Position numbers and translations under genes: made by a program
Assembly (NCBI GenBank): GCA_965649265.1
Contig: CBFGKC010000024.1
Coordinates: forward strand, 1-23,340
Direction of reading: 5' to 3'
From: a candidate division WOR-3 bacterium
GTDB lineage: Bacteria; Hydrothermota; Tepidihabitantia; B3-TA06
Length of the DNA: 23,340 nt
The notes under the pieces: model-generated
Database searches by the model: none
What the model was told of the DNA's origin: nothing
The model's input: the letters and a program-made list of their open reading frames with translations, nothing else
Shown: piece after piece, positions 494 to 23,216 of the stretch
Layout: every line of letters begins with the position of its first letter
Numbering within the stretch: the first letter of the stretch is position 1

Positions 494-640
494 CCCGAAA
501 TGTCCATCTTTTGACCATCTTTTGTCCCACTTTTGTCCAACTTAGTTATCCACATTTTTGACGCGTCGCGTTAAACCTGACTTCACGGATTCTCCCGAAA
601 ACGCTCCGCCAACCCCGGCTGTCTGGAGGGCGGTTTGAAG
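494..640 (+). repeat. Dispersed intergenic element, copy A (11-bp tandem units + DnaA box + conserved distal block)
   Basis: 494-565 is the reverse complement of 23156-23216 except for one extra 11-bp unit. 611-640 matches the reverse complement of 23044-23073 at 24/30 positions. Confidence 0.9.
546..554 (+). promoter_or_regulatory. Consensus DnaA box TTATCCACA
   Basis: Exact 9/9 match to the R-type DnaA box, intergenic, and conserved in the second copy of the element. Confidence 0.65.
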
Positions 641-739
641 CCTGGCGAGCGCTTGAAAGCTGCAGGGCGAATCAAACTTGGCTTGGGTCGGTCTTGCCCC
701 AAAAGCTGGATAAGTGGCATTTAATCCAACGGATAGCAG

Positions 740-768
740 TTGACAGAGCGCGAATCCGCGCTTAGAAT
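740..768 (+). promoter_or_regulatory. Sigma70-type promoter for tRNA-Leu/rnc operon
   Basis: TTGACA (740-745), 17 bp spacer, TAGAAT (763-768), lying 8 nt before the tRNA 5' end. Confidence 0.85.
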
Positions 769-776
769 CCAATCTC

Positions 777-861
777 GCCGGGATGGTGAAATTGGCAGAC
801 ACAAGGGACTTAAAATCCCTCGGGGCTTTGCTCCGTGCCGGTTCGAGTCCGGCTCCCGGCA
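777..861 (+). tRNA. tRNA-Leu (anticodon TAA), CCA not encoded
   Basis: Acceptor stem GCCGGGA/TCCCGGC with discriminator A. D-arm GGTGAAATTGGCAGACAC, anticodon arm AGGGA-CTTAAAA-TCCCT, long variable arm, T-arm GCCGG-TTCGAGT-CCGGC. Confidence 0.97.
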
Positions 862-862
862 T

Positions 863-1528
863 GTGAAAAACTTCGTGAAAAAACTCAAAATGGGTTTTCG
901 CAAGAAGGAACTCCTTGAACGCGCACTCACGCATCCGTCATGGGCGCACGAGTATATGGGTGACAGGCGGCAATCTTATGAGAGACTCGAGTTTCTTGGG
1001 GATGCCGTTTACGAGATGCTTCTGCGGGAGTACTTCTACGAATCGCTTGATCATGCGGACGAAGGGATGCTTTCAAAGCTTAAGAATCGCTATTCGTCCG
1101 GTGCGTTCATGGCCGAGATGGCCCGTAAGTTCGAGATAGATCAGTACCTCAGGCTTGGTCGCAGCGAGGAAGCCGACGGACGTCAGAAGGACTCCATCCT
1201 GGCGAACTCTTTTGAGGCGCTTTTCGGAGCTCTTTACCTCGACAGGGGAATCAAGCACTGCAGAAGATTTTTTCGCAGCCAGGTTATTCCGTTCATCGAC
1301 CTTTCCATTATCCCTTTTGATGCTAAGTCCAGACTCAACATCCGACTGTCTGGTGAGCGTTGCGAATACAAGATATTAATGAAGCACGGCGAGGATCACC
1401 GTCCACACTTTCACGTCGGGCTTTTCATCAACGGAGTACTCGTCGCCTCAGGCGAGGCAGGCAGCAAGAAAAAAGCTGAACTCATTGCTGCCGAGCAATA
1501 TCTCAATTCCCTCAGCAAGGTACCATGA
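863..1528 (+). CDS. rnc: Ribonuclease III
   Basis: ALTHPS, signature ERLEFLGDAV, FEALFGALYLD and a C-terminal dsRBD (GSKKKAE..AA). Start placed at GTG 863 by similarity to typical RNase III N-termini; GTG 875 and ATG 890 are alternatives. Confidence 0.93.
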   Translation: MKNFVKKLKMGFRKKELLERALTHPSWAHEYMGDRRQSYERLEFLGDAVYEMLLREYFYESLDHADEGMLSKLKNRYSSGAFMAEMARKFEIDQYLRLGRSEEADGRQKDSILANSFEALFGALYLDRGIKHCRRFFRSQVIPFIDLSIIPFDAKSRLNIRLSGERCEYKILMKHGEDHRPHFHVGLFINGVLVASGEAGSKKKAELIAAEQYLNSLSKVP

Positions 1529-2490
1529 GCTTTCTGTTGCTTGCCCTTGGTCCGGTCCTCGCGATTTTCTTTTTTTTCTGGGCAAAAGACAAATACGAGA
1601 GAGAGCCCTTAAAGAGGCTTATACTTACCGCCGGCATTGGTGCCGTGTCAGCGATACCGGTAGTGATCATAGAGATGCTCTGGGGACATACCATGATGAA
1701 TGTATCTGCCCTTAGTTTGCCCGAACTTGGTTTTATGGCATTCGTGGAGATAGGTGTCACTGAAGAGCTGTTCAAAGCCATCGCTTTCTTCTCCACGGCC
1801 TACTGGAGCAAGTACATGAACGAGCCCTATGACGGCATGATCTATTCGGTTGCCGCGGCACTCGGATTCGCTGCCGTCGAAAACATTCTCTACGTCCTCT
1901 CCGGCGGCATCCTAACCGCGGTGATAAGGGCGGTGACGGCGGTTCCGGCACACGCCATGTTCGGAGCATCCATAGGCTATTTCTCAGGCAGGGCCAAGTT
2001 CACGAAGTATCCGATTCTCAAACCATTTCTAATTCTTTCGGGGTTTGCCATATCCGTTCTGCTGCACGGTCTTTACGATTTAATCGCTCTGTGGCCGGAA
2101 CCGCTGGCGTGGCTCTGGCTTATTCCTCTTCTCGGCGTGATGGTTGCAGGAACCCTTCTTCTTACAAGAGACGCACGCAAGCGCTCACCTTTCCTGCCTG
2201 CTGTCGATGCGGAAGGGCACTATACGGGATACACGATCTCAGGCCGGCCTCTGACTCCCAAGGTCATTGCGATGCTCGAAAAGGAATCCATGAAACATAA
2301 ACGTCAGGGAGAAAAGGACCAAAAGAATGAGCCTCATTTTGATGACAGTCCGCACTTCATAGAGGAGTACCTCAAATCGGGCGCCAGGGAGGAAAAAACT
2401 CCACAAGAGGATGTCAAAACCCAGGATTCCGGCGAGGCCGGACCTCCAGGCAAGGATTCTCACTTCCTGGACGATTACTTCAAAAAGTAG
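1525..2490 (+). CDS. prsW: PrsW-family intramembrane glutamic metalloprotease with charged C-terminal tail
   Basis: Multi-TM protein with DKYEREP, EELFK (EExxK), GFAAVEN, HAMF and LHGLYD motifs. ATGA overlap with rnc. Confidence 0.88.
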   Translation: MSFLLLALGPVLAIFFFFWAKDKYEREPLKRLILTAGIGAVSAIPVVIIEMLWGHTMMNVSALSLPELGFMAFVEIGVTEELFKAIAFFSTAYWSKYMNEPYDGMIYSVAAALGFAAVENILYVLSGGILTAVIRAVTAVPAHAMFGASIGYFSGRAKFTKYPILKPFLILSGFAISVLLHGLYDLIALWPEPLAWLWLIPLLGVMVAGTLLLTRDARKRSPFLPAVDAEGHYTGYTISGRPLTPKVIAMLEKESMKHKRQGEKDQKNEPHFDDSPHFIEEYLKSGAREEKTPQEDVKTQDSGEAGPPGKDSHFLDDYFKK

Positions 2491-2499
2491 GGTGGGGAT

Positions 2500-2943
2500 T
2501 TGAGCGATATACCTCTTTCGGCGCTTCTTAAGCTAGGTGTTGCTGTGGTGCTCGGCGCGGTAGTGGGACTCGAACGTCTTCTCTCAGGTAAGCCTGCGGG
2601 TATGAGAACACACATCCTCGTAGGATTCGGCTCCGCGCTCTTCATGATAGCGGCCGAGTTGAGCGGACTTGATCCGACTCGTGTTGCAGCCGGTCTAATT
2701 ACCGGCATAGGCTTTCTGGGCGCGGGCACAATCATACAAGACAGGGGAACCGTTCACGGCTTGACTACCGCAGCCTCAATCTGGGTCGTGGCCGGAATCG
2801 GGATCGCGGTCGCCCGCGGATTGTGGGTGCTCTCGGTTGCAGCCACTCTGGGTGTTCTGGCCGTTCTCTGGGGTCTGCACTATCTGGAATCTGCGATAGA
2901 AAAGGGCGTTGTCCGAAGGAAATCTCCAGGTACAAAAGATTGA
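2500..2943 (+). CDS. MgtC/SapB family membrane protein
   Basis: GLER...KPAGMRTHILV, DPTRVAAGLITGIGFLGAGTI and GLTTAASIW motifs. TTG start. Confidence 0.92.
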   Translation: MSDIPLSALLKLGVAVVLGAVVGLERLLSGKPAGMRTHILVGFGSALFMIAAELSGLDPTRVAAGLITGIGFLGAGTIIQDRGTVHGLTTAASIWVVAGIGIAVARGLWVLSVAATLGVLAVLWGLHYLESAIEKGVVRRKSPGTKD

Positions 2944-2989
2944 TTTCCCAGGTATCCTTTCCTTGAGCTTGCATAGAATCTGGCTTCAG

Positions 2990-3017
2990 TTGACAAAGTC
3001 TTTCCTTTCCTTAATAT
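2990..3017 (+). promoter_or_regulatory. Sigma70-type promoter, predicted leaderless, for diguanylate cyclase operon
   Basis: TTGACA (2990-2995), 16 bp spacer, TAATAT (3012-3017), 6 nt, then GTG 3024. No SD. Confidence 0.65.
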
Positions 3018-3023
3018 TGCACC

Positions 3024-4364
3024 GTGAGTCTGAAAATCAAGCTTCCGCTTGTAGTGACTTTTACAGTTCTTCTGAGTGCACTAGGGCTGAGTTACTTCCT
3101 GATTCGCCACGAGCAAAACGTGCTCAGGGAAGAATTAAGAAGAAGAGGAGAGCTCCTGGCAAGGCAACTCGCAGGAATTGACAGGGTTGCATTCTATTAT
3201 GTCGCCTCGGAGGTGAAAAGGCTTCACAGCGAGGATTCAACAGGCACTCCCATGAATCTTGAGGACTCCTTGGCCACTTCACCCAAGCTTTATGACATGT
3301 CCCGTTTCCTCTTCAATTCGCTTGCCAGCGTAACCGACAGCATTCTTGTCGTCGGTAATGATACCCTCAAGAGTTGGGTACTTTCAGCATCATTCTTTGA
3401 CTGGGAGGATTCCCTCGTTATATCACGACCGCAGGTAGCATCAGTGGTGCTTGGCAAGCCCGATGACGGGTTCACCTTTGTCTCACCTATTTTCGTGAGG
3501 AAAGACACCCTCGGCTTTGCCCAGGTCAGGATGGACCCAAAGGTCCTAGAAAAAGCAATAAGCGATGCATTCAGAAACATCCTTCCCATAATAATAGGAA
3601 TTCTGGCTTTCAGCGTTTTGCTTTCGTGGGTTTTGAGCGCACTTTTCACGTCTCCGGTCTCCAAGTTGCAGAAACAGGCATTATCTCTGGCCAGCGGCGA
3701 TCTTGCGGCAAGGGTCGAGATCCGTTCGCGTGACGAGCTTGGTCTTCTTGGCAGGGTATTCAACGACATGGCGCGCAACTTGCAGCTAAGTTACGACGAA
3801 CTAAAGGAGAAGCTTGTCGAAATCAAACGGCTTTTCAAGATGGCTACGGAGGACGGGCTTACGGGTTTGTACGTTAAGAGGTATTTCCTTGAGCTTCTTT
3901 CCGGCGAGCTCAGGCGCTCCATAAGGTATTCAAGACCGCTTTCGGTTCTCATGTGCGACATAGATCATTTCAAGAGGGTCAACGACACTTACGGGCATCC
4001 GGCGGGTGACGTCGTACTGCGTTCGGTGGCGCGCAGGTTCGCCGCTGCAACGAGGGACGGCATAGACGTGATAGGTCGATACGGGGGGGAGGAGTTCGCG
4101 GTAATGCTGCCCGAGACGGATGAGGAGTCCGCATGGCGCGTCGCCGAGCGTTTGAGGCGTTATATTGAATCCGAACCTGTTTCCCTTGCGAGCGTCGAGG
4201 GTGTCGGGGCCGAGGGTGTCACAGTTACAATCTCCATTGGAGTTACTACGATCACGGACGAGACGACTCTTGAAAGGGTTATTGCCGCGGCCGATAAGGC
4301 TCTGTATGCATCCAAAGAGGCAGGGCGTAATCGCTCTACTTCGCTCTCGGTGGAGCTCTTATGA
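3024..4364 (+). CDS. Membrane sensor diguanylate cyclase (2 TM + periplasmic domain + HAMP + GGDEF)
   Basis: Two TM segments, HAMP motif (SRDELGLLGRVFNDM), DGLTGL, DIDHFKRVNDTYGHPAGD, RYGGEEF and ADKALYASKEAGRN. Confidence 0.93.
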   Translation: MSLKIKLPLVVTFTVLLSALGLSYFLIRHEQNVLREELRRRGELLARQLAGIDRVAFYYVASEVKRLHSEDSTGTPMNLEDSLATSPKLYDMSRFLFNSLASVTDSILVVGNDTLKSWVLSASFFDWEDSLVISRPQVASVVLGKPDDGFTFVSPIFVRKDTLGFAQVRMDPKVLEKAISDAFRNILPIIIGILAFSVLLSWVLSALFTSPVSKLQKQALSLASGDLAARVEIRSRDELGLLGRVFNDMARNLQLSYDELKEKLVEIKRLFKMATEDGLTGLYVKRYFLELLSGELRRSIRYSRPLSVLMCDIDHFKRVNDTYGHPAGDVVLRSVARRFAAATRDGIDVIGRYGGEEFAVMLPETDEESAWRVAERLRRYIESEPVSLASVEGVGAEGVTVTISIGVTTITDETTLERVIAAADKALYASKEAGRNRSTSLSVELL

Positions 4365-5407
4365 GTATACTTGTCGCGCTGTCCTTATTCACTTACCCGT
4401 TCGGACTTTTCGGCCTCGGTCCGGCATCCGGTTCAGACGCGGGCATGATGCTTGAACAGGGCATCTTTGCGCTCGAATACAATCCTGCCGGTCTTGCGTG
4501 GATTGATTCAATAGAGGGGGGGATCTCGGCGGAGAGTCTTTTCGTGTACAATCTTGTCGGCGTTGCATATAAATACAAAAACTGGCCTATTGCCGCTTCA
4601 GTCCATCACACGCCGCAGACCACCGGATTCTCCCTGGGGTCGGGTTATCTTAACCGGCCTCTTGCTTTGGGCGGCGCCTTCGGTGCGTCTTTCGGAAGAA
4701 ACGAACAGCAGAATCTTTCACTTCGTTTTGGGCTTCAGTGGAGGGAGTACATAGGTCTCGCACTGGGGCCGAGACTCTGGCTTGCCCAGGATACGGCTCA
4801 TCTGAGCGGCATGGTTCAGATAGGAGCATCGGTTCCAATAATCGAGGGTCTCAAATTCCTCGCGGGGGCATCCGCACAGATTCTACCTGCCTCCTTTAGG
4901 GCGTCTGGGGGGCTTGCTTACGAACCCTTCAGTTTCCTGAGGGTGCAGAGCGTTGTTGCCACCGACGGCTGGGGCGCTTGTATTATACTTTCAAGCGGCG
5001 ACGACCGCGGCGGAATATGGGTACAAAAGGATTTTGACGAAGGAACTGCTTGGAACCTTGGTTTGTCATACGTTCGCAGCGTGCGTCTGGGCAGAGTCAA
5101 AGAAGTTGTTCATTACAGAAACCTTCCCGCCAGAGTAGATACGGTGTATATCCTTCAGACAAAACCGGTTAATATTGATTCCACAAAAGTCGTCTCTCCG
5201 GATGTCCGCCGCAAACAGGAACAACTGATGGCCAAGGCTAATCGCCTCTATGCCGAAGAGCGCTACGAGGAGGCCCTTGTGGTCTGGAAGGAAGTGGTGC
5301 AGCTTGATCCGTCATCCGATCTTGCGGCGAGGGCAAACGAAGACATAAAAGATGTCAGCTCGCTCATAGAGACTCTTAACAGGATACGTTCAGGTAAACC
5401 TCAGTGA
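4361..5407 (+). CDS. Putative outer-membrane beta-barrel (PorV/FadL-like N-terminus) fused to C-terminal TPR
   Basis: Hydrophobic N-terminus, YNPAGLA motif, alternating Gly/aromatic beta-strands, and a C-terminal helical TPR (ANRLYAEERYEEALVVWKEVVQLDP). ATGA-coupled to the cyclase. Confidence 0.55.
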   Translation: MSILVALSLFTYPFGLFGLGPASGSDAGMMLEQGIFALEYNPAGLAWIDSIEGGISAESLFVYNLVGVAYKYKNWPIAASVHHTPQTTGFSLGSGYLNRPLALGGAFGASFGRNEQQNLSLRFGLQWREYIGLALGPRLWLAQDTAHLSGMVQIGASVPIIEGLKFLAGASAQILPASFRASGGLAYEPFSFLRVQSVVATDGWGACIILSSGDDRGGIWVQKDFDEGTAWNLGLSYVRSVRLGRVKEVVHYRNLPARVDTVYILQTKPVNIDSTKVVSPDVRRKQEQLMAKANRLYAEERYEEALVVWKEVVQLDPSSDLAARANEDIKDVSSLIETLNRIRSGKPQ

Positions 5408-5491
5408 GGGAACCATGGGAAAAGTGTCGGGGGAGAGGGGGATCATCTCCTAAAAACATCCTTCTGAAAGCCTTTTGCGATCCTTTGCGGC

Positions 5492-5519
5492 TTGACATAA
5501 GCCGTAGTTAGTGTAGACT
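5492..5519 (+). promoter_or_regulatory. Sigma70-type promoter for thrS operon (near-leaderless)
   Basis: TTGACA (5492-5497), 16 bp spacer, TAGACT (5514-5519), 8 nt, then ATG 5528. No SD. Confidence 0.7.
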
Positions 5520-5527
5520 TACGACAA

Positions 5528-7423
5528 ATGGTCAAAATAACGCTTGAAGGCGTTGTAAATGACGTTGAAGATAGTGTGCGTCTTCGCGATCTGGCCCCTG
5601 ACGGGGCACTTGCAGCTGTCCTGAACGGAAAGCCCGTAGAGCTTTCCACCCCTGTTCAGGAGGGTGCCGATATATCGTGGCTTACCTTCGAGGATGAGGA
5701 GGGGCGCAAGGTGTTCTGGCACTCGACCTCTCATCTTATGGCTCATGCGGTTAAAAGGCTCTTTCCAAGGGCAAAGCTCGCAATAGGTCCGGCAATTGAC
5801 GAGGGTTTCTATTACGATTTTAAGGTCGAGCGGCCGTTCAGTGAAGGTGACCTGAAGAAAATAGAAAAAGAGATGCACAGGCTCGTCACCAGGGCCTTGC
5901 CGATTCGCAGAAGGGTATTCCCGAAGGCGAAGCTTGAACATTACTACGGTTTCGAAGGTGAGTCGTTCAAGTTGGAACTCTTGAATGAGATAGAAGACGG
6001 GCATGTGAGTGTATACGAGCAGGATGATTTTCTCGATATGTGCCTTGGACCTCATCTTGACGATACGTCCAGGATAATCGGCATCAAGCTTATGTCCGTG
6101 GCCGGTGCATACTGGCGCGGCAGCGAGAAGAACCAGATGCTGCAGCGCATCTACGGCATCTCTTTCCCTTCGAAAGAGGAGCTTGATGCCTATCTTGCAA
6201 AAATCGAAGAAGCCAAGGCGCGTGACCATCGCATCATCGGGCGCGAGCTCGATCTTTACGACATAGTCGAGGAGGTGGGCCCCGGGCTTGTTCTCTGGAA
6301 GCCCAAGGGCACAATTTTACGCCAGGAAATCGAGAGGTTCTGGACCTCCGAGCATCTCAAGCGGGGCTACCAGCTTGTTCAAACCCCTCACATCGCACGT
6401 GCCGAGTTGTGGAAGATTTCCGGTCACTATTCGTACTATAAAGAAAACATGTTCCTTACCTCCATCGAAGATCAGGAGTACGTTATAAAGCCCATGAACT
6501 GTCCTGGACACATGATGCTTTACCGTTCCGTAAAGCACAGTTACCGTGATCTTCCCATGCGCTACGCCGAACTCGGGACCGTTTACCGCAACGAACGCTC
6601 CGGCGTACTCCACGGGATGCTGCGCGTACGCGGTCTCACTATTGATGATGCCCACATCTTCTGTACCCCTGAGCAAGCGCCTTCTGAGATCGAAGGAGTG
6701 CTCGACCTGGCGCTTTTCATGACCCGTGCGTTCGGTTACAAGGATATCAAGGTGGAACTCTCGCTCTGGGACCCTGACAATCGAGATAAGTACGCGGGAA
6801 CACCCGACAAGTGGGAGCACGCGCAAGGCATACTCGAAAAAGTTCTTAAGGACAAAAATATCTCTTATAAAAAAATGGCCGGAGAGGCCGCATTCTACGG
6901 GCCGAAAATAGACATAAAACTCCTGGACGCCCTAGGCAGACCGTGGCAGGCATCGACCATCCAGTTCGACTTCAATCTGCCCGAGCGTTTCGGCCTCATA
7001 TACGTGGGCGAGGACGGCCAGGAACACGAAGTTCGCGTCATACACAGGGCCATACTGGGATCTATGGAGCGCTTCGTGGGAGGTCTCATAGAGTTTTACA
7101 GGGGCGAGTTCCCGTTGTGGATAGCCCCGTACCAGGTTGCAGTTTTGACCGTTACCGATGCCGCTCAGGATTACGCATCCGAGATTGCAGCCGAACTTAT
7201 AGATGAAGGTATCCGTGTGATTACCGACTTTTCCGGCGAGAAGATAGGTGCCAAGATCAGGCGTCACGAACTGGAGAAGATACCATATATGATTATCTTG
7301 GGTAATCGTGAAGCGCAGGATGCAAAGGTGGCGTTAAGGCGTCACCATGACGGCGACCTGGGTAGCTTTACCCTTGCCGAGGTAATAAAGCGATTCAAAA
7401 AAGAAATCAAAGCTCGGAGGTGA
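5528..7423 (+). CDS. thrS: Threonine--tRNA ligase
   Basis: TGS domain, HSTSHLMAHAV editing motif, KPMNCPGH, GEAAFYGPKID, IHRAILGSMERF and an anticodon-binding domain. Confidence 0.99.
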   Translation: MVKITLEGVVNDVEDSVRLRDLAPDGALAAVLNGKPVELSTPVQEGADISWLTFEDEEGRKVFWHSTSHLMAHAVKRLFPRAKLAIGPAIDEGFYYDFKVERPFSEGDLKKIEKEMHRLVTRALPIRRRVFPKAKLEHYYGFEGESFKLELLNEIEDGHVSVYEQDDFLDMCLGPHLDDTSRIIGIKLMSVAGAYWRGSEKNQMLQRIYGISFPSKEELDAYLAKIEEAKARDHRIIGRELDLYDIVEEVGPGLVLWKPKGTILRQEIERFWTSEHLKRGYQLVQTPHIARAELWKISGHYSYYKENMFLTSIEDQEYVIKPMNCPGHMMLYRSVKHSYRDLPMRYAELGTVYRNERSGVLHGMLRVRGLTIDDAHIFCTPEQAPSEIEGVLDLALFMTRAFGYKDIKVELSLWDPDNRDKYAGTPDKWEHAQGILEKVLKDKNISYKKMAGEAAFYGPKIDIKLLDALGRPWQASTIQFDFNLPERFGLIYVGEDGQEHEVRVIHRAILGSMERFVGGLIEFYRGEFPLWIAPYQVAVLTVTDAAQDYASEIAAELIDEGIRVITDFSGEKIGAKIRRHELEKIPYMIILGNREAQDAKVALRRHHDGDLGSFTLAEVIKRFKKEIKARR

Positions 7424-7426
7424 TTG

Positions 7427-8089: not shown

Positions 8090-8123
8090 GATTTAAAGAG
8101 TACTCATTTTAAGGAGATAAAAA

Positions 8124-8354: not shown

Positions 8355-8357
8355 AGA

Positions 8358-9726: not shown

Positions 9727-9737
9727 ACAGTTTAAAC

Positions 9738-11900: not shown

Positions 11901-12799
11901 GTCTTGAGGTCTCAATTGGTGCAAATCGGTTCAGGAACCCTCTGGTGCTGGCATCAGGTACCTTTGGATACGGTTTGACTTTTACAGATGTAGTACAGAG
12001 CGTCGGTGTCCTTGTAACCAAGGGTATAACGGTCAAGCCAAGAAAAGGTAATTCCGTGCCTCGAATATGGGACACACGTGAAACGGTCGTCAATTCGGTG
12101 GGGCTCGAGAATGTGGGACTCGAGCGTTTCAAGAATCAAATCTTGCCGTCCATCAAAGTGACTACGCCGGTTTATGTCAATCTTGCCGGTGTGACACCTG
12201 ACGACTTCAGAGAGCTTGTCTTAACTTTGAACGATGATCAAAAAGTAACCGGGTTTGAGCTCAACCTTTCGTGTCCGAACGTTAAAGAAGGCGGTACTTC
12301 TCTTGGCCAATCCCCAATTACAGTTGCGAGGGTTACCGAACTCTGCAGGTCACTCACAAAAAAACCCGTGTGGGTGAAGCTTACGAGTAATTTTTGCGAT
12401 GTTAGAGAAACCTCTGTTGCAGCAGCTGAAGCGGGAGCGGATGCGATTGTTCTCGTAAACACTCTCAATGCGCTCGTGATTGATACCTCAAAGCGGAAAC
12501 CCTTTTTAGGAGCAGGTTCGGGCGGTCTTTCAGGTCCGGCGCTCAAGCCTCACGTTCTTTACATTATCAGGGAAGTTTCCCGCAGAATCTCAATTCCCAT
12601 CATAGGATCTGGTGGTGCCGTTTCAGGGCTTGACGTTATAGATTTTTTGCTTTCAGGTGCCAGTATGGTTCAGATAGGCAGCGCCAACCTTGTTGATCCG
12701 GAAAGCGCTTTGCGTATTCTTAAAGAAATTCAAGTTTATTTTGAGAGGGAGGGTATCAGTTCGCCCTCCGAGCTCATAGGTCGATTGGAGGAAAGATGA
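11897..12799 (+). CDS. pyrD: Dihydroorotate dehydrogenase B catalytic subunit
   Basis: NPLVLASGTFG, NSVGLENVG, ELNLSCPNV, VKLT and GGLSGPALKP. GTGA overlap with pyrK. Confidence 0.97.
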   Translation: MSLEVSIGANRFRNPLVLASGTFGYGLTFTDVVQSVGVLVTKGITVKPRKGNSVPRIWDTRETVVNSVGLENVGLERFKNQILPSIKVTTPVYVNLAGVTPDDFRELVLTLNDDQKVTGFELNLSCPNVKEGGTSLGQSPITVARVTELCRSLTKKPVWVKLTSNFCDVRETSVAAAEAGADAIVLVNTLNALVIDTSKRKPFLGAGSGGLSGPALKPHVLYIIREVSRRISIPIIGSGGAVSGLDVIDFLLSGASMVQIGSANLVDPESALRILKEIQVYFEREGISSPSELIGRLEER

Positions 12800-13487
12800 C
12801 CGACATTATTGTTGCCGCGAATCTTGCATCCATGGATGAGTTGAAAGCTTTCGTCAAGAAGACTTCCCGACATCTTAACTACTACAAGATAGACTCGGGC
12901 CTTTTCACGAAGACTGGTCCCGATGCTATAAAACTTATCAAGGATGCAGGAAGAAAGATTTTTCTTGACCTCAAGTTTCACGACATTCCTTCCACGGTTG
13001 CTCGGGCGGCGGCCGACTGTATAGAACTTGGTGTTGACATGTTCAACGTTCACGCCATGGGCGGCTTCGAAATGATGCCGCAGTCAAGGAAACGTGGAGC
13101 CTGCATGATGGAACTCCTATCATTCTTGGAGTTACCATACTTACTTCCATTGACGAGGCTGCTTTCCGGGATCTTTTCGGTTCGCCGGCAAACAGTCTCA
13201 ACGAACACGTTATCCTGCTCGCCCAGCTTGCAAAAAGCGCCGGTCTTTCGGGCGTGGTTGCTTCGGCAAACGAAGTAAAGACGATCAAGGAAAAATGTGG
13301 TAAAGATTTTGTTGTAGTTACGCCCGGAATCAGACTTCCTAATGAGGCGAAACAGGATCAAATGCGGATAGACACACCTAAGGGCGCGGCCATGTCCGGC
13401 GCAGACTACATCGTTGTAGGAAGGCCTATCGTTGAGGCAGCCGATCCTGTAGCGATAATCGAAAGGTACAAAAAGGAGCTTTCATAA
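12796..13487 (+). pseudogene. pyrF: Orotidine-5'-phosphate decarboxylase, frameshifted near 13077 (pseudogene or sequence error)
   Basis: The first frame carries FLDLKFHDIPSTV...NVHAMGGFEMM. The -1 frame from 13077 continues AAVKE...ILGVTILTS...GVVAS...VTPGIR...DQMR..TP...GADYIVVGRPI to TAA 13485-13487. Confidence 0.88.
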
Positions 13488-14047: not shown

Positions 14048-14075
14048 GCGATTTAGTTCTTAGGTTTTACCCGCT

Positions 14076-14465: not shown

Positions 14466-14474
14466 GACTTCTCC

Positions 14475-16668: not shown

Positions 16669-17489
16669 TTGTTAAGCTCCTTGAAGAATCGCTTGAAGAT
16701 TTTTCGCATTTTTTGAGCCGTTTGCGACGCGGCCTGGCTTATTTCCTCGAGGGTTTCGCCCTCAGGAGGTTGTGGAAGAAATATTGCCATGTTAGACACT
16801 ACAGAAACGGCGAGTATCTTCATTCCGAGCTGCACGGCAACAATAACCTCAGGGACTGTAGACATTCCGACCAGATCTCCTCCCGCGCTGTGGAAGAATC
16901 TGAGTTCTGCGGGCGTCTCAAGGCTTGGTCCGGCCACCGCGATGTACACGCCTGTTTTTGGGAGAACCTTTTCAGCAAGCGCCGCAATTGTGAATCGCTC
17001 CATTAGGGTAGGGTTATAAGCCTGGCTCAATGCCGGGAATCTTGGGCCGGCTTTTTCATCGGTAAAGGCGCGCAGGGGATTTACACCCATGAAATTTATA
17101 TGATCCGAGATTATAACAATATCACCTATCTTGAAATGAATATTTAGAGCTCCCGCTGCGTTTGTAACAACAAGCGTCTCGGCACCGAGTTCGTGTATGA
17201 CCCTTAAAGGATAGGTGACTTCATCCATTGAGAAACCCTCGTAAAAATGCGGTCTGCCTTTCATTACGGCCAGGGGATAGCCCTCCATGCGACCTATCAC
17301 CAGCTCCCCCTCGTGTGTTGAAACCGTAGGTGTCGGAAAATGAGGAATGTGGGAGTAAGGTATTGTTACTGCTTCGTCAAGATCGTCTACAGCATCTTTA
17401 AGTCCTGTTCCAAGAATTACTAATCCTTTAGGAATAAGATTCGTGGTGGAACGTATGAAAGCAAGGCTTTCCTCAATTTGCTGTCGCAT
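16665..17489 (-). CDS. punA: Purine-nucleoside phosphorylase (trimeric, PunA/XapA type)
   Basis: ILGTGL, IPYSHIPHFP, GRPHFYEG, TNAAGAL, DHIN, GPSLETPAE and VGMSTVPE. Confidence 0.94.
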   Translation of the reverse strand: MRQQIEESLAFIRSTTNLIPKGLVILGTGLKDAVDDLDEAVTIPYSHIPHFPTPTVSTHEGELVIGRMEGYPLAVMKGRPHFYEGFSMDEVTYPLRVIHELGAETLVVTNAAGALNIHFKIGDIVIISDHINFMGVNPLRAFTDEKAGPRFPALSQAYNPTLMERFTIAALAEKVLPKTGVYIAVAGPSLETPAELRFFHSAGGDLVGMSTVPEVIVAVQLGMKILAVSVVSNMAIFLPQPPEGETLEEISQAASQTAQKMRKIFKRFFKELNK

Positions 17490-17946
17490 CCTCTTTAGTC
17501 TCCTTCTTTAGTCTTTCAACGATCTTTCCGTAGCTGTTGAACAAATTTTCCATCTCCTCGAGAAAAGCCATTTTTTGACCCCTAAGGCTCTGAATAGTTG
17601 AACGCAGACGCTCAAGCTCATGCTGTGCCGACGCAAGGGTTTTCTCCGCTTCAAGTTTGGCTTCTTCTCGTACACGCTCTGAATCCTCCACCGCTCGCTG
17701 TCTGAGCTGTTCTGCCGTTCCATGACCCTGGGTTAGGGTTTGTTTCAGAACCTGTTCCATCTGCTTGAATTCCCCTATTTCTTCCTCCATATGGAGGATT
17801 TTGCGTCGCAGAGATTCTCTTTCGTTGTGAAGTGTTTCGATCTCTTCCGCTAATTCGAGCAGAAACGTCCTGACTTCTCTGGGATCAAATCCCCGTAAGA
17901 CGAGTCTAAACTCTTTCTTGCGAAGTTTATCCGGTTCTGTAACCAT
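17473..17946 (-). CDS. DivIVA domain-containing coiled-coil protein
   Basis: PDKLRKKEFRLVLRGFDPREVRTFL matches the DivIVA N-terminal motif, followed by coiled coil. Confidence 0.9.
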   Translation of the reverse strand: MVTEPDKLRKKEFRLVLRGFDPREVRTFLLELAEEIETLHNERESLRRKILHMEEEIGEFKQMEQVLKQTLTQGHGTAEQLRQRAVEDSERVREEAKLEAEKTLASAQHELERLRSTIQSLRGQKMAFLEEMENLFNSYGKIVERLKKETKEDATAN

Positions 17947-17951
17947 CTCGT

Positions 17952-17979
17952 AGTTTACCTAGCAAGGCAAGACTGTCAA
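17952..17979 (-). promoter_or_regulatory. Sigma70-type promoter, predicted leaderless, for divIVA-punA-...-nadD
   Basis: Minus strand TTGACA (17979-17974), 16 bp spacer, TAAACT (17957-17952), 5 nt, then ATG 17946. Confidence 0.72.
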
Positions 17980-17987
17980 CGTTTTCC

Positions 17988-19499
17988 TCAAATCTCATGT
18001 CTGGCCAGATTGGCATAAAGCGATGCCGGATCCTTTACTATCAGTTCTTTGAAAATCTCTTTTGCTTCTTCATTTTTTTTCATCTTGTCTCTCAGCAAAA
18101 GAGCCATTTCAAATAGAGCGCGGGATGCCAGAGGACTTTGATAGAAGTCAGAAGCAAGTGTGAGATAACATTTTTCGGCATTCTTGAATTGTCGAAGCTT
18201 GACCTGGCATTCGGCTTCAAGGAGAAGGGCTTCATCGGCGATTTCGGGTGATGCCTTTTGAAGCTTTTGAGCACGGTCAGCGGCATCCTGCGGGTCACCC
18301 CATTGGTATGCAGCTACGGCCTCGGCATATTGCCCGGCGTATTCAGGCAGTGTAATACTGACTTTGTACATGAGGATTATGTCATTTTCGAAAGAACTGC
18401 CAGGATAGCGCACTAACACTGCGTCCATGCAGTGCTTGAGGGAGTCGTTGTTCCCCGCAGCTGCCGCAAGTAATGCTTTTGCAAAAAGTACCTGATCGTC
18501 CTCCCCTATGCCGGTCAAATACCGGATCGCCTTATCTTTCTCTCCCATCAGAAGTTCAAGGGCTGCGATTTTTACACTCCATTTGGTCCTGACCCCTTTT
18601 TGACTCGTCAAGTCGTCAAAAATCTCAACAGCTTCGGCATATGTTGATTTTGACAGCGAGAGAATGTGTGCCAGAAGTTCCTGTGCTTCCTGAGAATCTT
18701 TCCCGCGTAGCTGCTTTTTCGCTTCGTCTGTGTGTCCAAGTATAGCAAGCATCCTTGCTTCGTCGATATCCATCCCGGCCTTTTGGTAAGCAGTAAGGGC
18801 GGCATTGAAGTATTCAGCCTGTTCGGCCGTCCTGCCCATAGTCTTTAGCTCGTCTTTATCTTTTGTTTCGCTTATGACTTTCAAAAGAGAAGAGGTGTCG
18901 CCTGTCTCTACAAAAGTTGTGAAACCGGCGTACCCTTTAACGGATTTCAATCTGGACGAGACTTTTTCCTTGCCCAGACGATCGGATAGTATGTCTATAT
19001 AACGTTTGAATACTGATGCATCGCCGCCTGTCTCAAGGGCCGCGCGTATCTCTTCGATTGCTTTGTTATCCTCGTTACGCCGGATATAAAAGTCTGTCAG
19101 GAGCTCGGCGTGAAGCGTAGGATTCGATGTTCGTTTGCGCTCCTCCTTAACGAACCAGGTCAATTCCTCCACTTCAAGTTCCTTTAACGTGAATATTATT
19201 TCACTGGCCCAGTCAGGAGACTTCTTGTAGAGTTCCTTGAACTGTTTAAGGGCCTCCTGCTCTGAACCTGCCATCAGAAGGCCCTCGGCGCATCCGTAGA
19301 GCAATAAGTTGTTGCCTGGATTCTCCGCAAGCCATCTAGTGCTGTTTTGGTTCAGCCTTTCACCAAGATTCTGCTGGCGGCAGTAATAGAGGTACCTTTC
19401 GTAGGTCTCTTCGTCAAAGGCGGTTGTCAGACGTCCCTCAAAGCTGGTAACGACATCCTGACTTGCAGCGATAAGCAGTAACGAAAGGAACACGCTCAA
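17988..19499 (-). CDS. Secreted TPR-repeat protein
   Basis: Signal-like N-terminus and a helical TPR pattern ending in IFKELIVKDPASLYANLAR. TTGA overlap with the upstream gene. Confidence 0.8.
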   Translation of the reverse strand: MSVFLSLLLIAASQDVVTSFEGRLTTAFDEETYERYLYYCRQQNLGERLNQNSTRWLAENPGNNLLLYGCAEGLLMAGSEQEALKQFKELYKKSPDWASEIIFTLKELEVEELTWFVKEERKRTSNPTLHAELLTDFYIRRNEDNKAIEEIRAALETGGDASVFKRYIDILSDRLGKEKVSSRLKSVKGYAGFTTFVETGDTSSLLKVISETKDKDELKTMGRTAEQAEYFNAALTAYQKAGMDIDEARMLAILGHTDEAKKQLRGKDSQEAQELLAHILSLSKSTYAEAVEIFDDLTSQKGVRTKWSVKIAALELLMGEKDKAIRYLTGIGEDDQVLFAKALLAAAAGNNDSLKHCMDAVLVRYPGSSFENDIILMYKVSITLPEYAGQYAEAVAAYQWGDPQDAADRAQKLQKASPEIADEALLLEAECQVKLRQFKNAEKCYLTLASDFYQSPLASRALFEMALLLRDKMKKNEEAKEIFKELIVKDPASLYANLARHEI

Positions 19500-22400
19500 T
19501 CCTGCTCCAGAAGAGATTCGATATAGTTTCTTGCAAAGCGCTTGTAATCTTCGGAGTATTGCGACCTCTCGATGCGCAAGAGTTCCTTTTTAAGCCATAA
19601 ATCACGTTCCCCTGCGTCTCTCGGTAACGTGGGTGAAGAAAGACCCTTCCAGGTGCTTCCTATCTCACGCTCCCTTTCCCTTGTTTCGTCTTTCTTTCTA
19701 AGAACATTCCGGGCGTCAAGAAGCCTCCTGAAAACCTGCTCGCCCCTGTCCACTAGCTCCCTTTGTCCCACATATCGTGACATATCTTCTTCCATTCTTT
19801 TCATCTCCTCGATTATTCCCTCGAGCATACCCGATAGTCCGGGTTCCTGTCCGCCGCTCTTGGAAAGCTCCTCCAGTTCTCGGCGCAGCCCAGCTTGCTC
19901 CGCGAGCATTTCTCCCAGAGCCGCTTGTTGTTCCGCCGTCATCTGTCCCGATATCGGCAACGGGAAGATGCCCGACATTTGCTGGTTCAATGAAAGCTGG
20001 GCGAGACTCATTTGTGAAAGGGCGTTGAGCATTTCCTCCAAACCTGTTGATGAGCTGCCGGACTGACTGGAGTTGCGGGCGTAGGCTTCAAGCAGGGAAG
20101 CAGCCGCTTTGTCTATTGAAACCTGCGCTGCTTTACCATAATCGGTAGCACTTGCCTTTCGATCGTCAATCAGGTTCTCCTTAAAGGCTGCCTCGCTTCG
20201 TGAGGCCTCGGCAAGATTCTGCATGGCATCGCGAGGTACATTGAAACTCCGACTCGCGAGTTGGTAGATGTTCTCCTTTGAACGCTCAAGGGAGCGTTCA
20301 AGCTCGGCAGCTTTGGCCGCGGCTTCGAGTGATGGAGTAGAACCAAGATTTCGGGTTAGCTTCTCCTGCTCCTCGCTTAACAGCAGTAGTTCGCGTGCGG
20401 CAAGCGCCATCTCCTTGTTTAGCTGATTTTGTCTCGAGCGTTTGAGATTCGAAGCCATCTGGCCGAACTGCATCGAGGCTTGTTTCAGGTTTTTGCTTAA
20501 TTTGCGGGCACTTTCTTTATCCACAATTGACTTTGCCAGACTTTTCTCGATCTTCTGGCTAAGGCTCGTGTTTTCTCCCGACATCTCCCTGGAAAGCTCG
20601 GAAAGCTCTTCGGACATCTGGCTCTCAGCAAGGTTCTCAGAAAGCTCCTGTGCCGATTTTGCCAGTTCCTCAAGACCTTTTTCTATCTCCTTTTGCCTGG
20701 CCTGAGCGTCCTCTGTCGAAAGATTTGAGGATTCCTTGATCAGGTTATCCTCCATTTCCGCAAGAGCTTCGGCTTTCTCGGCAAGTTCAGAAAGCGACTG
20801 CTCCTCGAGAAACCGCTCGAGAACGGCCATAGCCTGCTCGAGCTGGTTTCCCAGGTCCCGGCTGAGTGAAGAGGTCTTGTTAAGTTCCTCAGCCAGGCGA
20901 TTTGGGTCGTTCTTCAAGGCCTCGGCCAGGTCCTCTAGCTTGGAGCGCAGTTCGGGAGGCATGAGGTTTGAAAGCATCTGGCTAAGGGATGCAAGTTTTG
21001 CCGCGGTCTCGGGGTCAGTAATCGCGCTCTCCTGCAGTTTTTCAAGAAACTTCCGCGTTTCTCGGGCAAGGCTGTCAACCGAACCCATGAGATTCTTCTG
21101 CTCTTCAATTATCTCCTGCAGCCTGGCCTTCTCTTCCGGTGATAAGTCCCTTTGGGACCTGAGCTTGGATTCGATGCGCGAAAGTTCGGCACCCAGCTCC
21201 TGCTGTCGCTCACCCAGGGTTGAGAGTTCCCCCTGGGCCTGGGAACCATATTTCGTCACTTCTGAAAAAGCCTCGTCAATACCGGGAAGTCTTATTCTGT
21301 AAGTCTTGCTGCGTCCCCACTTGGGGCCAAGAACGGGATCATTATCCGAAACCTCCACGTAGTACGTTATCTCATCGCCCGGAAGGAGATTGAGTGATCC
21401 TAAGTCCCAGATATAGAATAAAGTATCCTCCCTTCTCCCTCCCGATTTCCCGATCGGTATCCTTTGCCCGTTCGGCCCGGATGCAACCAACGCCGCCTGC
21501 CCGAGACCGTAGTCGTCCGCGAGTTCCACCCCTATCGTAAGTTCCATTGATCTGTCTACTTCCGCGTCTTTGCCCGGCATGAACACGTACACAAGGGGCA
21601 CATAGTCCGTTCTTGCATCCACGTTTACTTTTCGTTCTACTTTCATGCCCGTCCTGCTTGTAAGTGACAACAATACGTCTGTTTGACTGGTGAAATCGAA
21701 TCCTCCCTTGAAATCCCTTCCGTCCACCTCAATTTTGACCACCGAGTCGCCAATCTTCAAGGCGGCGTCTGTAAGTTCAGCGGATGCCGACCCTGTGAAC
21801 GAAACGGCGCTCCCCGGAAGAGCGGCAAAGCCGAACCCGCTTGAAAGCTTTGGTTTTTCCCCGGTATAGGGGGGAGGGGTAGTCGTGAATGCGATGTTAG
21901 TGACGTCGAATGGCTGATTTACACCGATGTAAACCTCGCCCGAACTTCGCCCGAGTCGCGAGAACTTGAACTTCGTCTCATCAGTCAAATTCAACCTAAC
22001 CTTGGCAATGCCATCTCTTACTTTTACCCTCGAGTGCGAGATTCTTTTGCCCTCTATCTTCTCCAAATACACAAAACCCAACTTTACAGGGGCCGTGATC
22101 CTGGCCGCAACTTCCGCAGATGCGCCTTTTTCGAGCAATGTGTCCGGTGTCAGGGATTCAATCCGTAAGTCGAGTCGTGCGGGCGCGAATACGGCGTCAA
22201 AACCGAAACGCATTCGCGCGGGCAGCGCCACACTTATCGCAGTTATCGCGATTACTGCAGTTGCAGCGATTCCCAGGGAATAAAAAAAGTTCCTGCGTTC
22301 CTTTTGAGTCGAAAGCTTCTTCCCGTCCAGCCGATTCTCGATAAGTCCAATATAATCGCCGCTTAGTTCGTCAGAGTAAACTTCTCTCGGATTCCTTTTT

Positions 22401-22684
22401 GCAGAAAGATCCGCCGCGGTTGAAAGCCGGTCCTGCCACGACAAGTCGCGTAACTCAGCGGATCTGGCAATGTCATAGGCCGAAGGTCTGCGCGTGAGCC
22501 AGAACGCCGTGAGCGTAAGCGGCACAAAGAGGACAACATACGGCCAGGCTGATAAGAGCAAAAACGCGGCCGCGCTCGCGAGTGTGGCTGCAGCCGCGAA
22601 AAGCATCGCAAGGGAAAGCACAGTGAGCGTATCCCTTGTCTGCCTGTAACTTGTAAGTCTCGACTTGAGCTTTGCACCGGTCAT
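19496..22684 (-). CDS. DUF4175-like large membrane-anchored protein (TM + Ig-like + long coiled coil)
   Basis: N-terminal TM helices, 'DRLSTAAD', 'TPPPYTG', 'DDYGL', 'PGDEITYYVEVSDND...GPKWGRS', then Q/E/L-rich coiled coils. Confidence 0.75.
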   Translation of the reverse strand: MTGAKLKSRLTSYRQTRDTLTVLSLAMLFAAAATLASAAAFLLLSAWPYVVLFVPLTLTAFWLTRRPSAYDIARSAELRDLSWQDRLSTAADLSAKRNPREVYSDELSGDYIGLIENRLDGKKLSTQKERRNFFYSLGIAATAVIAITAISVALPARMRFGFDAVFAPARLDLRIESLTPDTLLEKGASAEVAARITAPVKLGFVYLEKIEGKRISHSRVKVRDGIAKVRLNLTDETKFKFSRLGRSSGEVYIGVNQPFDVTNIAFTTTPPPYTGEKPKLSSGFGFAALPGSAVSFTGSASAELTDAALKIGDSVVKIEVDGRDFKGGFDFTSQTDVLLSLTSRTGMKVERKVNVDARTDYVPLVYVFMPGKDAEVDRSMELTIGVELADDYGLGQAALVASGPNGQRIPIGKSGGRREDTLFYIWDLGSLNLLPGDEITYYVEVSDNDPVLGPKWGRSKTYRIRLPGIDEAFSEVTKYGSQAQGELSTLGERQQELGAELSRIESKLRSQRDLSPEEKARLQEIIEEQKNLMGSVDSLARETRKFLEKLQESAITDPETAAKLASLSQMLSNLMPPELRSKLEDLAEALKNDPNRLAEELNKTSSLSRDLGNQLEQAMAVLERFLEEQSLSELAEKAEALAEMEDNLIKESSNLSTEDAQARQKEIEKGLEELAKSAQELSENLAESQMSEELSELSREMSGENTSLSQKIEKSLAKSIVDKESARKLSKNLKQASMQFGQMASNLKRSRQNQLNKEMALAARELLLLSEEQEKLTRNLGSTPSLEAAAKAAELERSLERSKENIYQLASRSFNVPRDAMQNLAEASRSEAAFKENLIDDRKASATDYGKAAQVSIDKAAASLLEAYARNSSQSGSSSTGLEEMLNALSQMSLAQLSLNQQMSGIFPLPISGQMTAEQQAALGEMLAEQAGLRRELEELSKSGGQEPGLSGMLEGIIEEMKRMEEDMSRYVGQRELVDRGEQVFRRLLDARNVLRKKDETREREREIGSTWKGLSSPTLPRDAGERDLWLKKELLRIERSQYSEDYKRFARNYIESLLEQD

Positions 22685-22687
22685 TTA

Positions 22688-22906
22688 TCACTCCTCATCG
22701 CATTTCCAGCCTTCTAAGTCCTCTTTTATACGAAAGTAACGGTTTCCGCACCTCACTCTAATTAGACGATAATTCTCACCCGTGGTTGCATCAAAAACCA
22801 GTGAATCTTCGACTACCTCATCAACAGTAAGTCGTTCGCTGTCAACGACTAACGCATGCGCACGTTCGTCCGCCTTCGTTCCGGCGAACCACTCGACGGC
22901 TATCAT
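22688..22906 (-). CDS. Small hypothetical beta-rich protein (DUF6504-like family, tentative)
   Basis: 72 aa. 'VEWFAGTKADER...V.EVV...' resembles the small 'YSGYKADERP' family. It is the first gene after a strong promoter. Confidence 0.7.
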   Translation of the reverse strand: MIAVEWFAGTKADERAHALVVDSERLTVDEVVEDSLVFDATTGENYRLIRVRCGNRYFRIKEDLEGWKCDEE

Positions 22907-22911
22907 ACACG

Positions 22912-22940
22912 ATTATAGGTCTCATTTGCCAACACGTCAA
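22912..22940 (-). promoter_or_regulatory. Sigma70-type promoter, predicted leaderless
   Basis: Minus strand TTGACG (22940-22935), 17 bp spacer, TATAAT (22917-22912), 5 nt, then ATG 22906. Confidence 0.85.
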
Positions 22941-22947
22941 GAGCCTT

Positions 22948-23000
22948 CCTCAGCCCCCCTCAGCCCTCCTCAGAGTCCCTCCTCAGAAGTCCCCCCTCAG
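22948..23000. repeat. Five-copy CCTCAG (CTGAGG) direct repeat array
   Basis: CCTCAG occurs at 22948, 22958, 22968, 22981 and 22995 (spacing 10, 10, 13, 14). Confidence 0.85.
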
Positions 23001-23008
23001 AGAGAATA

Positions 23009-23030
23009 ATTGCAATGACTCTTTTGCAAT
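23009..23030. promoter_or_regulatory. Operator-like inverted repeat ATTGCAA-N8-TTGCAAT
   Basis: Perfect 7-bp arms about 70 bp upstream of the -35 of the minus-strand promoter. Confidence 0.4.
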
Positions 23031-23043
23031 CAGGCGAGGCAAA

Positions 23044-23216
23044 CTTCAAACCGCCTTTTAGACAATCGGGGTCCCCGCGACATGAAATGACGACGCTTGC
23101 GGAGTAACTGCGGAGCAGACGTTTGGGGTGAAAACCGAGAGCTGGTTTAATCCAGCGCGTCAAAAATGTGGATAACTAAGTGGGACAAAAGATGGTCAAA
23201 AGATGGACATTTCGGG
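23044..23216 (-). repeat. Dispersed intergenic element, copy B (inverted relative to copy A)
   Basis: The minus strand reads CCCGAAA TGTCCATCTTT TGACCATCTTT TGTCCCACTTA G TTATCCACA TTTTTGACGCG ... TTAAACC ... GCTCCGC ... ACCCCGATTGTCTAAAAGGCGGTTTGAAG, collinear with 494-640. Confidence 0.9.
23167..23175 (-). promoter_or_regulatory. Consensus DnaA box TTATCCACA
   Basis: TGTGGATAA on the plus strand is an exact match, within element copy B. Confidence 0.65.

Follow-up and report, generated by a model that had tools for sequence, protein, structure and literature searches.

The stretch of DNA analysed here, which we call the window, is the entire contig C24 (23,340 nt; GenBank CBFGKC010000024.1) of a candidate division WOR-3 bacterium, whose 2.74-Mb genome is assembled in 27 contigs (GCA_965649265.1). 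Close to each end of the window lies one copy of a short non-coding element built around an array of 11-bp direct repeats, copy A on the left and copy B on the right in the opposite orientation. We are highly confident that both copies belong to a mosaic, lineage-restricted family of intergenic repeats and that the 22.7-kb block between them has no special status. The family is probably an intrinsically bent, protein-docking intergenic repeat of the same kind as bacterial interspersed mosaic elements (BIME), BOX elements and short tandemly repeated repetitive (STRR) sequences. A copy consists of an interchangeable head, often with phased CCC-N-AAAA tracts, followed by two to five head-to-tail 11-bp units and a tail of one of a few kinds. 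One kind of tail has, in this species, acquired one more 11-bp unit with the sequence of a perfect DnaA box, and this version is now present at 21 sites.

The size of the family was determined in two ways. Searching the genome with a 176-nt query from copy A in a blastn-type search gave 64 matches, and a stricter blastn search gave 44 loci. Arrays were also sought by pattern, with at least two consecutive units of the form TG[TA]CC-NN-[CT]T-NN. The pattern found 68 arrays with two, three, four or five units (26, 28, 13 and 1 arrays, respectively), and the unit consensus is TG[TA]CC-NN-CTTT. Two arrays were counted twice in exact overlaps between contig ends (102 nt between C21 and C25, 73 nt between C5 and C1), which leaves about 66. 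All 68 arrays are fully intergenic under the gene calls used, which came from a crude codon-usage open reading frame (ORF) caller together with ARAGORN and comprise 2405 features covering 86% of the genome. The arrays fall into tail classes: 21 are type I, with a tail containing a DnaA box, 43 are type II, in which the array continues into a T-run, and 4 are neither. The type I tail follows the pattern ACTTAG-TTATCCACA-TTTYTGACG...TTAAWCC, with 10 copies in the forward and 11 in the reverse orientation. The preliminary description had implied that the two window copies form a pair of their own. They are only two of these 21 type I copies, among about 66 arrays in the genome.

Copies of the element are assembled as mosaics. 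Several distinct heads recur, each with either tail type, and further modules are optional. Examples are heads ending in …GCCCGAAA, …GGCAAATTTGCCGTTT and …AAAATGCCCGTTT, and a head of about 100 nt ending in …GGCCGATTTTT. The 24-nt core of the tail is near-identical across all 21 type I copies. A block of the GGTTTGAAG/GAAGTTTGCC type lies within 260 nt of 9 of these copies, and the 70 nt before the array contain a strong fold in 8 of them. The layout that had been reported for the window pair, namely a hairpin, the array, a DnaA box, the block and, 99 or 103 nt further on, an inward-facing promoter, is indeed present in both copies. As a hallmark of the pair it fails, given how many DnaA-box copies lack the block or the fold. 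Repeated 14-mers, defined as those present at least three times on one strand or at least five times on both strands, make up 8.1% of intergenic and 1.3% of coding bases. Hairpin modules ending in …GGGGACCCC number 186 in the genome, 135 of them intergenic. In all the examples read, these hairpins had no T-run after them, and terminators of the lineage may lack U-tracts.

Another property that the copies share is the phasing of their A/T tracts. Every unit carries a TTTT tract, and across 60-110 bp an A/T tract returns at each 11-bp step, also between stretches of unlike sequence. In many heads, CCC-N-AAAA tracts keep the phase of the array, and in 56 upstream regions without a neighbouring array the starts of the AAAA tracts cluster at -13, -24, -35 and -45/-46. 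The arrays therefore have what defines curved DNA, A/T tracts of at least 4 nt that are helix-phased over several turns. In a wedge model with approximate parameters, the median maximum bend of the arrays was 58 degrees per 31 bp, compared to 29 degrees in random genome segments, and the predicted bend of 56 of 67 arrays lay beyond the 95th percentile for the genome. A phased and an unphased A-tract, used as controls, gave 82 and 8.5 degrees. Since phasing is kept across heads of different sequence, it looks like a selected physical property.

The arrays are also polar with respect to genes and promoters. Type I copies point the same way as the gene downstream of them in 16 of 19 cases (two-sided binomial p ~0.004). 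In co-directional spacers, eight point with transcription and none against it, while six copies lie in divergent and three in convergent spacers. Among the 16 downstream features with this shared orientation, three are tRNA genes (Leu, Met and Arg); genome-wide, tRNA and tmRNA genes account for 44 of 2405 features. A promoter pattern, TTGAC-N17-20-TAnnnT, was sought within 300 nt of each array. It was found past the tail of 15 of 21 type I, 13 of 43 type II and 1 of 4 other arrays, and past the head of 3 type I, 3 type II and no other arrays, compared to 16.5% of random intergenic points. Overall, there were 29 tail-side and 6 head-side promoter patterns (p ~1e-4). Arrays followed by promoter-like TTGAC motifs are common in another genus as well. 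The preliminary description had made its regulatory reading depend on a consistent position relative to promoters, and the other copies do show a consistent position and polarity.

Two further roles were considered and rejected. An oriented sequence like Chi or the FtsK-orienting polar sequences (KOPS) was discarded because replichore polarity was not found: the array strand is the G-rich strand in 28 of 68 arrays (p = 0.18). As terminators, the arrays would supply the U-tract of a hairpin; only a handful directly follow one, and the head-side gene points away in 24 of 58 arrays.

The family was then followed through related genomes. The threonyl-tRNA synthetase encoded in the window shares 77% identity with its counterpart in a Candidatus Stahlbacteria metagenome-assembled genome (MAG), and the next matches reach at most 54%. 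Within the same family, 9 of 10 other genomes gave matches to a 116-nt query, most of them many matches, and among 30 genomes representing other families in the class there were 2 with one weak match each. When GTDB species genomes were scanned for three consecutive units, 44 of the 72 stretches among the matches listed came from three Stahlbacteria MAGs; the remaining stretches among those matches were one or two per unrelated genome. Judging from these matches, the repeat occurs in a single family of Candidatus Stahlbacteria (WOR-3) and is confined to it. This agrees with the suggestion made at the outset that the element is dispersed, non-coding and lineage-specific. No published description of the repeat family was found in full-text searches, and one paper on WOR-3 genomics makes no mention of repeats, intergenic or repetitive sequence, transposition or DnaA (PMC12542636).

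Individual sites are not stable between species. At the tRNA-Leu site of copy A, the same-genus genome G001 likewise carries an array, oriented as in copy A but ending in a T-run tail and followed by other modules. No array is present there in G003, G006 or G002, and the promoter is conserved in all four relatives. The tRNA-Leu promoter of G003 and G006 is preceded by a gene whose C-terminal end resembles that of the gene upstream of copy A. The site of copy B has no array in G001, G003, G006 or G002, and in all four the gene order and the promoter TTGACG-17-TATAAT are kept, which answers the earlier question of whether empty sites could be found by synteny. A site next to tRNA-Met is empty in G001 and G003, and the site at C2:217432 has an array with yet another tail in G001 and none in G003. 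Because promoters are kept at sites without arrays, the promoters predate the elements. Some sites are as old as the genus, their tails having since been replaced. The turnover of sites, together with the near-identical 24-nt tail core, points to turnover with homogenisation within the genome.

Taken together, these results lead us to favor an architectural role. The element would act as DNA and not as RNA. A/T tracts repeated once per turn would give intrinsic curvature and place identical half-sites on one face of the helix, and the curved array may serve as an architectural or protein-docking platform. The element lies in the spacer that separates one transcription unit from the promoter of the next, with its tail towards that promoter, and an architectural role in such promoter-upstream spacers is suggested by this position and by the polarity. 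From there it could influence promoter use or local supercoiling. Copies would be gained, lost and homogenised within the genome by gene conversion or some form of mobilisation, and they are not conserved site by site. In short, we infer curvature in vivo, protein binding, an effect on promoters and the mode of spread.

Several known repeats resemble the family. BOX elements of Streptococcus pneumoniae (boxA-boxB(n)-boxC) are likewise dispersed, intergenic, non-coding and modular, occur in many copies and often lie near promoters. They share with the present arrays a head, a variable number of tandem units (here two to five) and a tail, although boxB is about 45 nt and the unit here is 11 bp. 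BOX elements are described as transcribed and as forming stable structures, with secondary structure made by head and tail. The present family lacks such a fold: no conserved fold was found in the tails, and heads and tails are not complementary. The BIME, the repetitive extragenic palindromes (REP) and the RIP elements of enterobacteria are likewise mosaics of a few short extragenic motifs joined in varying order, as found here. Elements of this type are bound by architectural proteins. In both cases, some versions carry an embedded site for a host protein, IHF in RIP elements and a DnaA box here. REP sequences are palindromes tied to transposases of the RAYT family, whereas the core here is a direct-repeat array and the tails have no consistent hairpin. 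STRR sequences of heterocystous cyanobacteria are also short tandem repeats in dispersed, lineage-restricted intergenic arrays, with a period of 7 nt instead of 11 bp. To our knowledge, helical phasing, head and tail modules and promoter polarity have not been described for STRR sequences.

A number of observations weigh against an architectural role. The figure for curvature depends on approximate model parameters, and both the gene calls and the promoter pattern came from crude tools. The distance from the end of the array to the promoter pattern ranges from 16 to 277 nt and is not fixed, 14 arrays lie between convergent genes, where a promoter is not expected, and the genes that follow type I copies serve miscellaneous functions. 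Two of four orthologous sites are empty in the sister species, which fits selfish turnover equally well. The polarity could stem from insertion bias or purifying selection and not from function. Finally, the best public read run contained 0.22 of the sampled words of this genome, and four public runs gave only short pieces over an array and a tRNA gene, none of which spanned the element.

The strongest rival is that the family is a selfish or neutral repeat without host function, with a polarity that reflects tolerated insertions or the mechanism of insertion. We regard this as possible, although clearly less likely than an architectural element. The presence or absence of copies at a site differs between species, even within the genus, and the near-identical 24-nt tail core in 21 copies is absent from the sister species. 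The mosaic build, the miscellaneous downstream genes and the breaks that arrays cause in the assembly also speak for a selfish repeat. Several signs of a transposable element were not found, however. Miniature inverted-repeat transposable elements (MITEs) are likewise short, non-coding, multi-copy and intergenic, and their presence varies between related genomes, but the present family has no terminal inverted repeats, fixed length or recognisable target duplication, and a search confined to Y1_Tnp revealed no parent transposon. An inverted unit occurs within 300 nt of only one of 68 arrays (copy A), neither window copy has an end-to-end inverted repeat, and complementarity between heads and tails was not found. 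A classical MITE, one form of the non-autonomous mobile element suggested initially, is thereby discounted. When filled and empty orthologous sites were compared, the spacers were too diverged to place the borders of an insertion, so no target duplication could be defined. Also, A/T tracts stay in phase across heads of differing sequence, and the order of array, tail and promoter recurs in another genus, both of which weigh against a selfish repeat.

No transposase with array-matching ends was found in a search confined to Y1_Tnp, which gave two genes; other transposase families were not searched. The Y1 gene whose flanks were read (IS200/RAYT-like; C2:116490-117150) is flanked on both sides by GTAG-type palindromes, GTAGGGGCCGACC…GGTCGGCCC, and not by arrays, which counts against a RAYT-driven selfish repeat. 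This gene and its palindromes look like a classical RAYT-REP pair unrelated to the 11-bp arrays. The nearest array is about 1 kb away, beyond other modules; its proximity was taken as coincidental and a link to RAYT was rejected. The second Y1 gene is at C5:115243-115566.

Another possible explanation is that the element is a DnaA-binding cassette, in which the 21 tails titrate DnaA or control about 16 promoters, three of them of tRNA genes, and the in-phase units might extend a DnaA oligomer. A perfect TTATCCACA, which matches the consensus TTWTNCACA, is present in all 21 type I copies. The genome has 49 perfect boxes, compared to about 21 expected by chance: 21 in the element, 6 in other intergenic DNA, 2 in the dnaA leader and 20 in other coding sequence. 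Type I copies therefore hold 21 of the 27 perfect boxes called intergenic. The dnaA leader (C1:92450-92520) has two perfect boxes in tandem, TGTGGATAA CTT TGTGGATAA, between the promoter and the start codon; the DnaA of this genome therefore probably recognises the canonical box. The tandem boxes also suggest autoregulation of dnaA through the canonical box. The box and the units of the element share one orientation. In E. coli, boxes in the same orientation support head-to-tail DnaA oligomers, datA adjoins a tRNA operon, and IHF, the activator of datA, prefers curved DNA (PMC10380432).

The lack of the box in relatives speaks against this explanation, which we consider improbable. The DnaA-box tail was absent from all 10 other genomes of the family in a tail pattern search, including that of the same genus (G001), and from all 56 arrays of three other MAGs. 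An exact 24-mer scan of GTDB species genomes for this tail also gave no match. A homologous tail without the box reads …CACTTA-ATTG-TGACGAGT-N5-TCAAACCTGAC in another genus and …CACTTA-TTTT-TGACGTG… in G002, so the box corresponds to one extra 11-bp unit. Because relatives keep the rest of the element without the box, the box cannot be the function of the family. Its invariance within this genome says little, since all 24 nt of the tail are equally invariant. The units of the array resemble the box poorly, and a role for them as weak DnaA boxes was rejected: in the 21 copies together, only 19 places match at least six of the nine positions, and their offsets are 13+11n and not 11n. Each copy has one perfect box and no cluster, and the downstream genes form no replication-linked set. 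A perfect TTATCCACA in non-coding DNA, upstream of promoters and next to tRNA genes, is also a feature of the datA and DARS loci and of DnaA-regulated promoters, whereas here there is a single box per copy and no cluster, in 21 dispersed copies, and all relatives lack the box. Recruitment of DnaA is a plausible extra property of the element in this species only. That the insertion of one unit made 21 dispersed high-affinity DnaA sites on curved DNA, each upstream of a promoter and three of them at tRNA promoters, which work as a datA-like sink or as a DnaA-dependent promoter switch tied to replication, is a still more speculative idea to which we give little credence. It would amount to a regulon or titration system created in one step by the concerted evolution of a repeat. 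Elsewhere in the genome, C15:10100-10180 contains DnaA-box-like 9-mers in both orientations (TTATCCACA, TTATCAACA, a stretch containing TCCACA, and TGTGGACAA) adjoining AT-rich DNA. This cluster is a candidate origin or DnaA-regulated promoter.

About as improbable is an operator array for a specific transcription factor, such as a winged-helix response regulator of the OmpR/PhoB type, which would define a regulon. Operators of the OmpR/PhoB family (PHO and ArcA boxes) contain two to six head-to-tail 11-bp repeats, with one protein bound per turn on one face of the helix. They have a fixed position at or near the -35 element, a direction relative to the promoter and coherent regulons. The present arrays share the two to five direct repeats at exactly 11 bp and the polarity towards promoters, and their TGTCC/TGACC cores are constant while the flanks vary. 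They differ from such operators in having no fixed position at -35 and no coherent regulon. The distance from the tail to the -35 is variable and often long, which argues against a classical operator or UP element, and 14 arrays are located in convergent spacers. Occupancy of sites is not conserved between species, and the build is mosaic and repeat-like. Pfam matches in the genes downstream of type I copies include fumarase, a PyrK-like oxidoreductase, a HAD hydrolase, two ECF sigma factors, an E1 dehydrogenase, PdxJ, a zinc-ribbon protein, MurJ, DUF2007/PPDK, TPR and beta-propeller proteins, RpiB and RNase III. A functional regulon was rejected because these genes have no common theme.

We consider it very unlikely that the repeat encodes a small RNA or a cis-acting RNA element. 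Array-like words do occur in contigs of one metatranscriptome library, which does not show transcription. An Rfam search of the window at the gathering score found only tRNAs. At E <=1, five element-carrying loci gave tRNAs and one chance-level match to Plastid-psbl-rps4 (E 0.93) inside tRNA-Arg, and none on the element. No fold was shared by the 21 type I tails under either RNA or DNA parameters (z-scores +1.4 to -2.6), and the folds differ from copy to copy. A hairpin in the tail was tried and rejected; the changes that look compensatory (GCTGG…CCAGC, GTCGGG…CCGGAC) occur only within subfamilies. In addition, type I copies lie upstream of the sole promoter-like sites, and unit number, heads and tails all vary. 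The non-coding RNA option raised in the preliminary description is not borne out by these folds; the Rfam match that would have removed the element's novelty was not found.

The least credible explanation is that the inverted pair marks a composite mobile or invertible segment of 22.7 kb: the 39-nt perfect match would in principle be enough for homologous recombination, but there are 19 further copies with this type of tail as well as about 45 other arrays, each of the two copies has closer relatives elsewhere, the contig ends in repeats, a single contig in both G001 and G002 carries the same block from the tRNA-Leu gene to the large gene without copy B, and the enclosed genes are housekeeping genes with no recombinase.

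The observations on which that idea was based are themselves sound. The arms 494-532 and 23178-23216 (39 nt) are 100% complementary, the arms 512-577 and 23144-23209 are 86% and the arms 612-640 and 23044-23072 are 83% complementary, and a 39-nt perfect inverted match within 23 kb is far beyond chance. As first reported, the copies differ by one 11-bp unit (four in copy A, three in copy B), which accounts for their lengths of 72 and 61 nt, and the 30-nt blocks at 611-640 and 23044-23073 differ at six positions, all of them transitions. The gap from tail to block is 34 nt in copy A and 71 nt in copy B, hence the 37 extra nucleotides noticed earlier. The enclosed block also holds housekeeping genes without a transposase or recombinase, as described. 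Each copy has better matches on other contigs than in the window: C13 for copy A (91% over 108 nt), and C15 (95% over 143 nt), C2 (90% over 145 nt) and C16 (85% over 160 nt) for copy B. Bracketing of a 22.7-kb unit is the claim that does not survive, with dozens of copies in the genome, a copy B site that is empty in four relatives and arrays enriched at contig ends. Inversion between copies A and B would be physically possible; the contig ends in repeated DNA 124 nt beyond copy B.

Copy A lies on the + strand. It is preceded by a gene encoding a type IX secretion system (T9SS) cargo protein (ORF 2-433, with the stop at 433), which has a C-terminal Por_Secre_tail match. After the stop comes a GC-rich hairpin (447-484, +; arms 453-461 and 471-479) with a fold of -13.1 kcal/mol under DNA parameters. 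The head (485-500, +), one of several interchangeable heads of the family, ends in …GGATTTTGCCCGAAA. The array (501-544, +) has the units TGTCCATCTTT, TGACCATCTTT, TGTCCCACTTT and TGTCCAACTTA, and its predicted bend in the wedge model with approximate parameters is 63.6 degrees per 31 bp, compared to a genome median of 29. The perfect DnaA box TTATCCACA (546-554, +) is followed by the tail (555-581, +), which in the alignment of 21 copies consists of TTTTTGACGCG, five variable nucleotides and TTAAACCTGAC. Both window copies read ACTTAG-TTATCCACA-TTTTTGACGCG, five variable nucleotides and then TTAAACC. Next is the GGCGGTTTGAAG block (611-640, +), which is a separate repeat module and not an obligate part of the element. 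A stretch resembling an inverted unit, CCCCAAAAGCTGGATAA (697-713, +), is found in copy A only. A sigma-70-type promoter, TTGACA-17-TAGAAT (740-768, +), serves tRNA-Leu and RNase III and begins 99 nt past the block. The first gene downstream is tRNA-Leu(taa) (777-861, +), and RNase III is next.

Copy B lies on the - strand. It is preceded by a GC-rich hairpin (23227-23259, -) whose 15-nt arms are 100% complementary (-18.4 kcal/mol, DNA parameters). The array of three 11-bp units (23177-23209, -) is followed by the perfect DnaA box TTATCCACA (23167-23175, -) and by the tail TTTTTGACGCG CTGGA TTAAACCAGC (23140-23166, -; alignment of 21 copies). An extended module, CACCCCAAACGTCTGC…GCGGGGACCCC (23074-23139, -), is common to copy B and the copies on C15, C2 and C16 and is absent from copy A. 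After the GGCGGTTTGAAG block (23044-23073, -), reading of the sequence identified purine-rich short repeats of the CTGAGG type (22943-23000, -) directly upstream of the promoter -35. These read CTGAGGGGGG ACTT CTGAGGAGGG ACT CTGAGGAGGG CTGAGGGGGG CTGAGGAAGG. The promoter TTGACG-17-TATAAT (22912-22940, -), 103 nt past the block, serves a small ORF and a gene for a protein of 1062 aa. This promoter and the one at 740-768 (+) are the sole promoter-like sites near the two copies. Neither the small ORF (72 aa) nor the 1062-aa protein after it has a Pfam match. The 72-aa ORF (22688-22906, -) is conserved in sequence and position in G001, G003, G006 and G002. Within the block, a pyrF-like gene looks split. 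ORF 12796-13278 begins like orotidine 5'-monophosphate (OMP) decarboxylase and then loses sense, and a second ORF follows at 13254-13487. This may be a frameshift or an assembly error.

The position of the two copies near the contig ends has a simple explanation. Arrays lie within 2.5 kb of 11 of the genome's 54 contig ends, compared to 2.4 expected, and because of this enrichment the framing of the contig by arrays is largely an effect of assembly. A contig flanked by such repeats tends to be the usual product of short-read assembly of this genome. The right end of the window (23217-23340) is itself repeated DNA, with 89% identity over 123 nt to the end of C19 and partial matches to C1, C4, C7 and C3. 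Besides the two overlaps between contig ends given above, which fall inside repeat modules, C15 and C22 overlap exactly by 47 nt. These three pairs are probably neighbouring contigs that could be joined.

For work on these organisms, the repeats are of practical relevance since they break Stahlbacteria assemblies, and overlaps of contig ends inside them can guide scaffolding. The family itself illustrates a repeat that conserves a physical property, 11-bp phased A/T tracts, together with promoter polarity, while its modules shuffle and homogenise. The species-specific gain of a perfect DnaA box at 21 sites offers a clear natural example of how a repeat can spread a site for a transcription factor or initiator through a genome. 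If DnaA does bind there, the element sites would roughly double the genome's perfect DnaA boxes.

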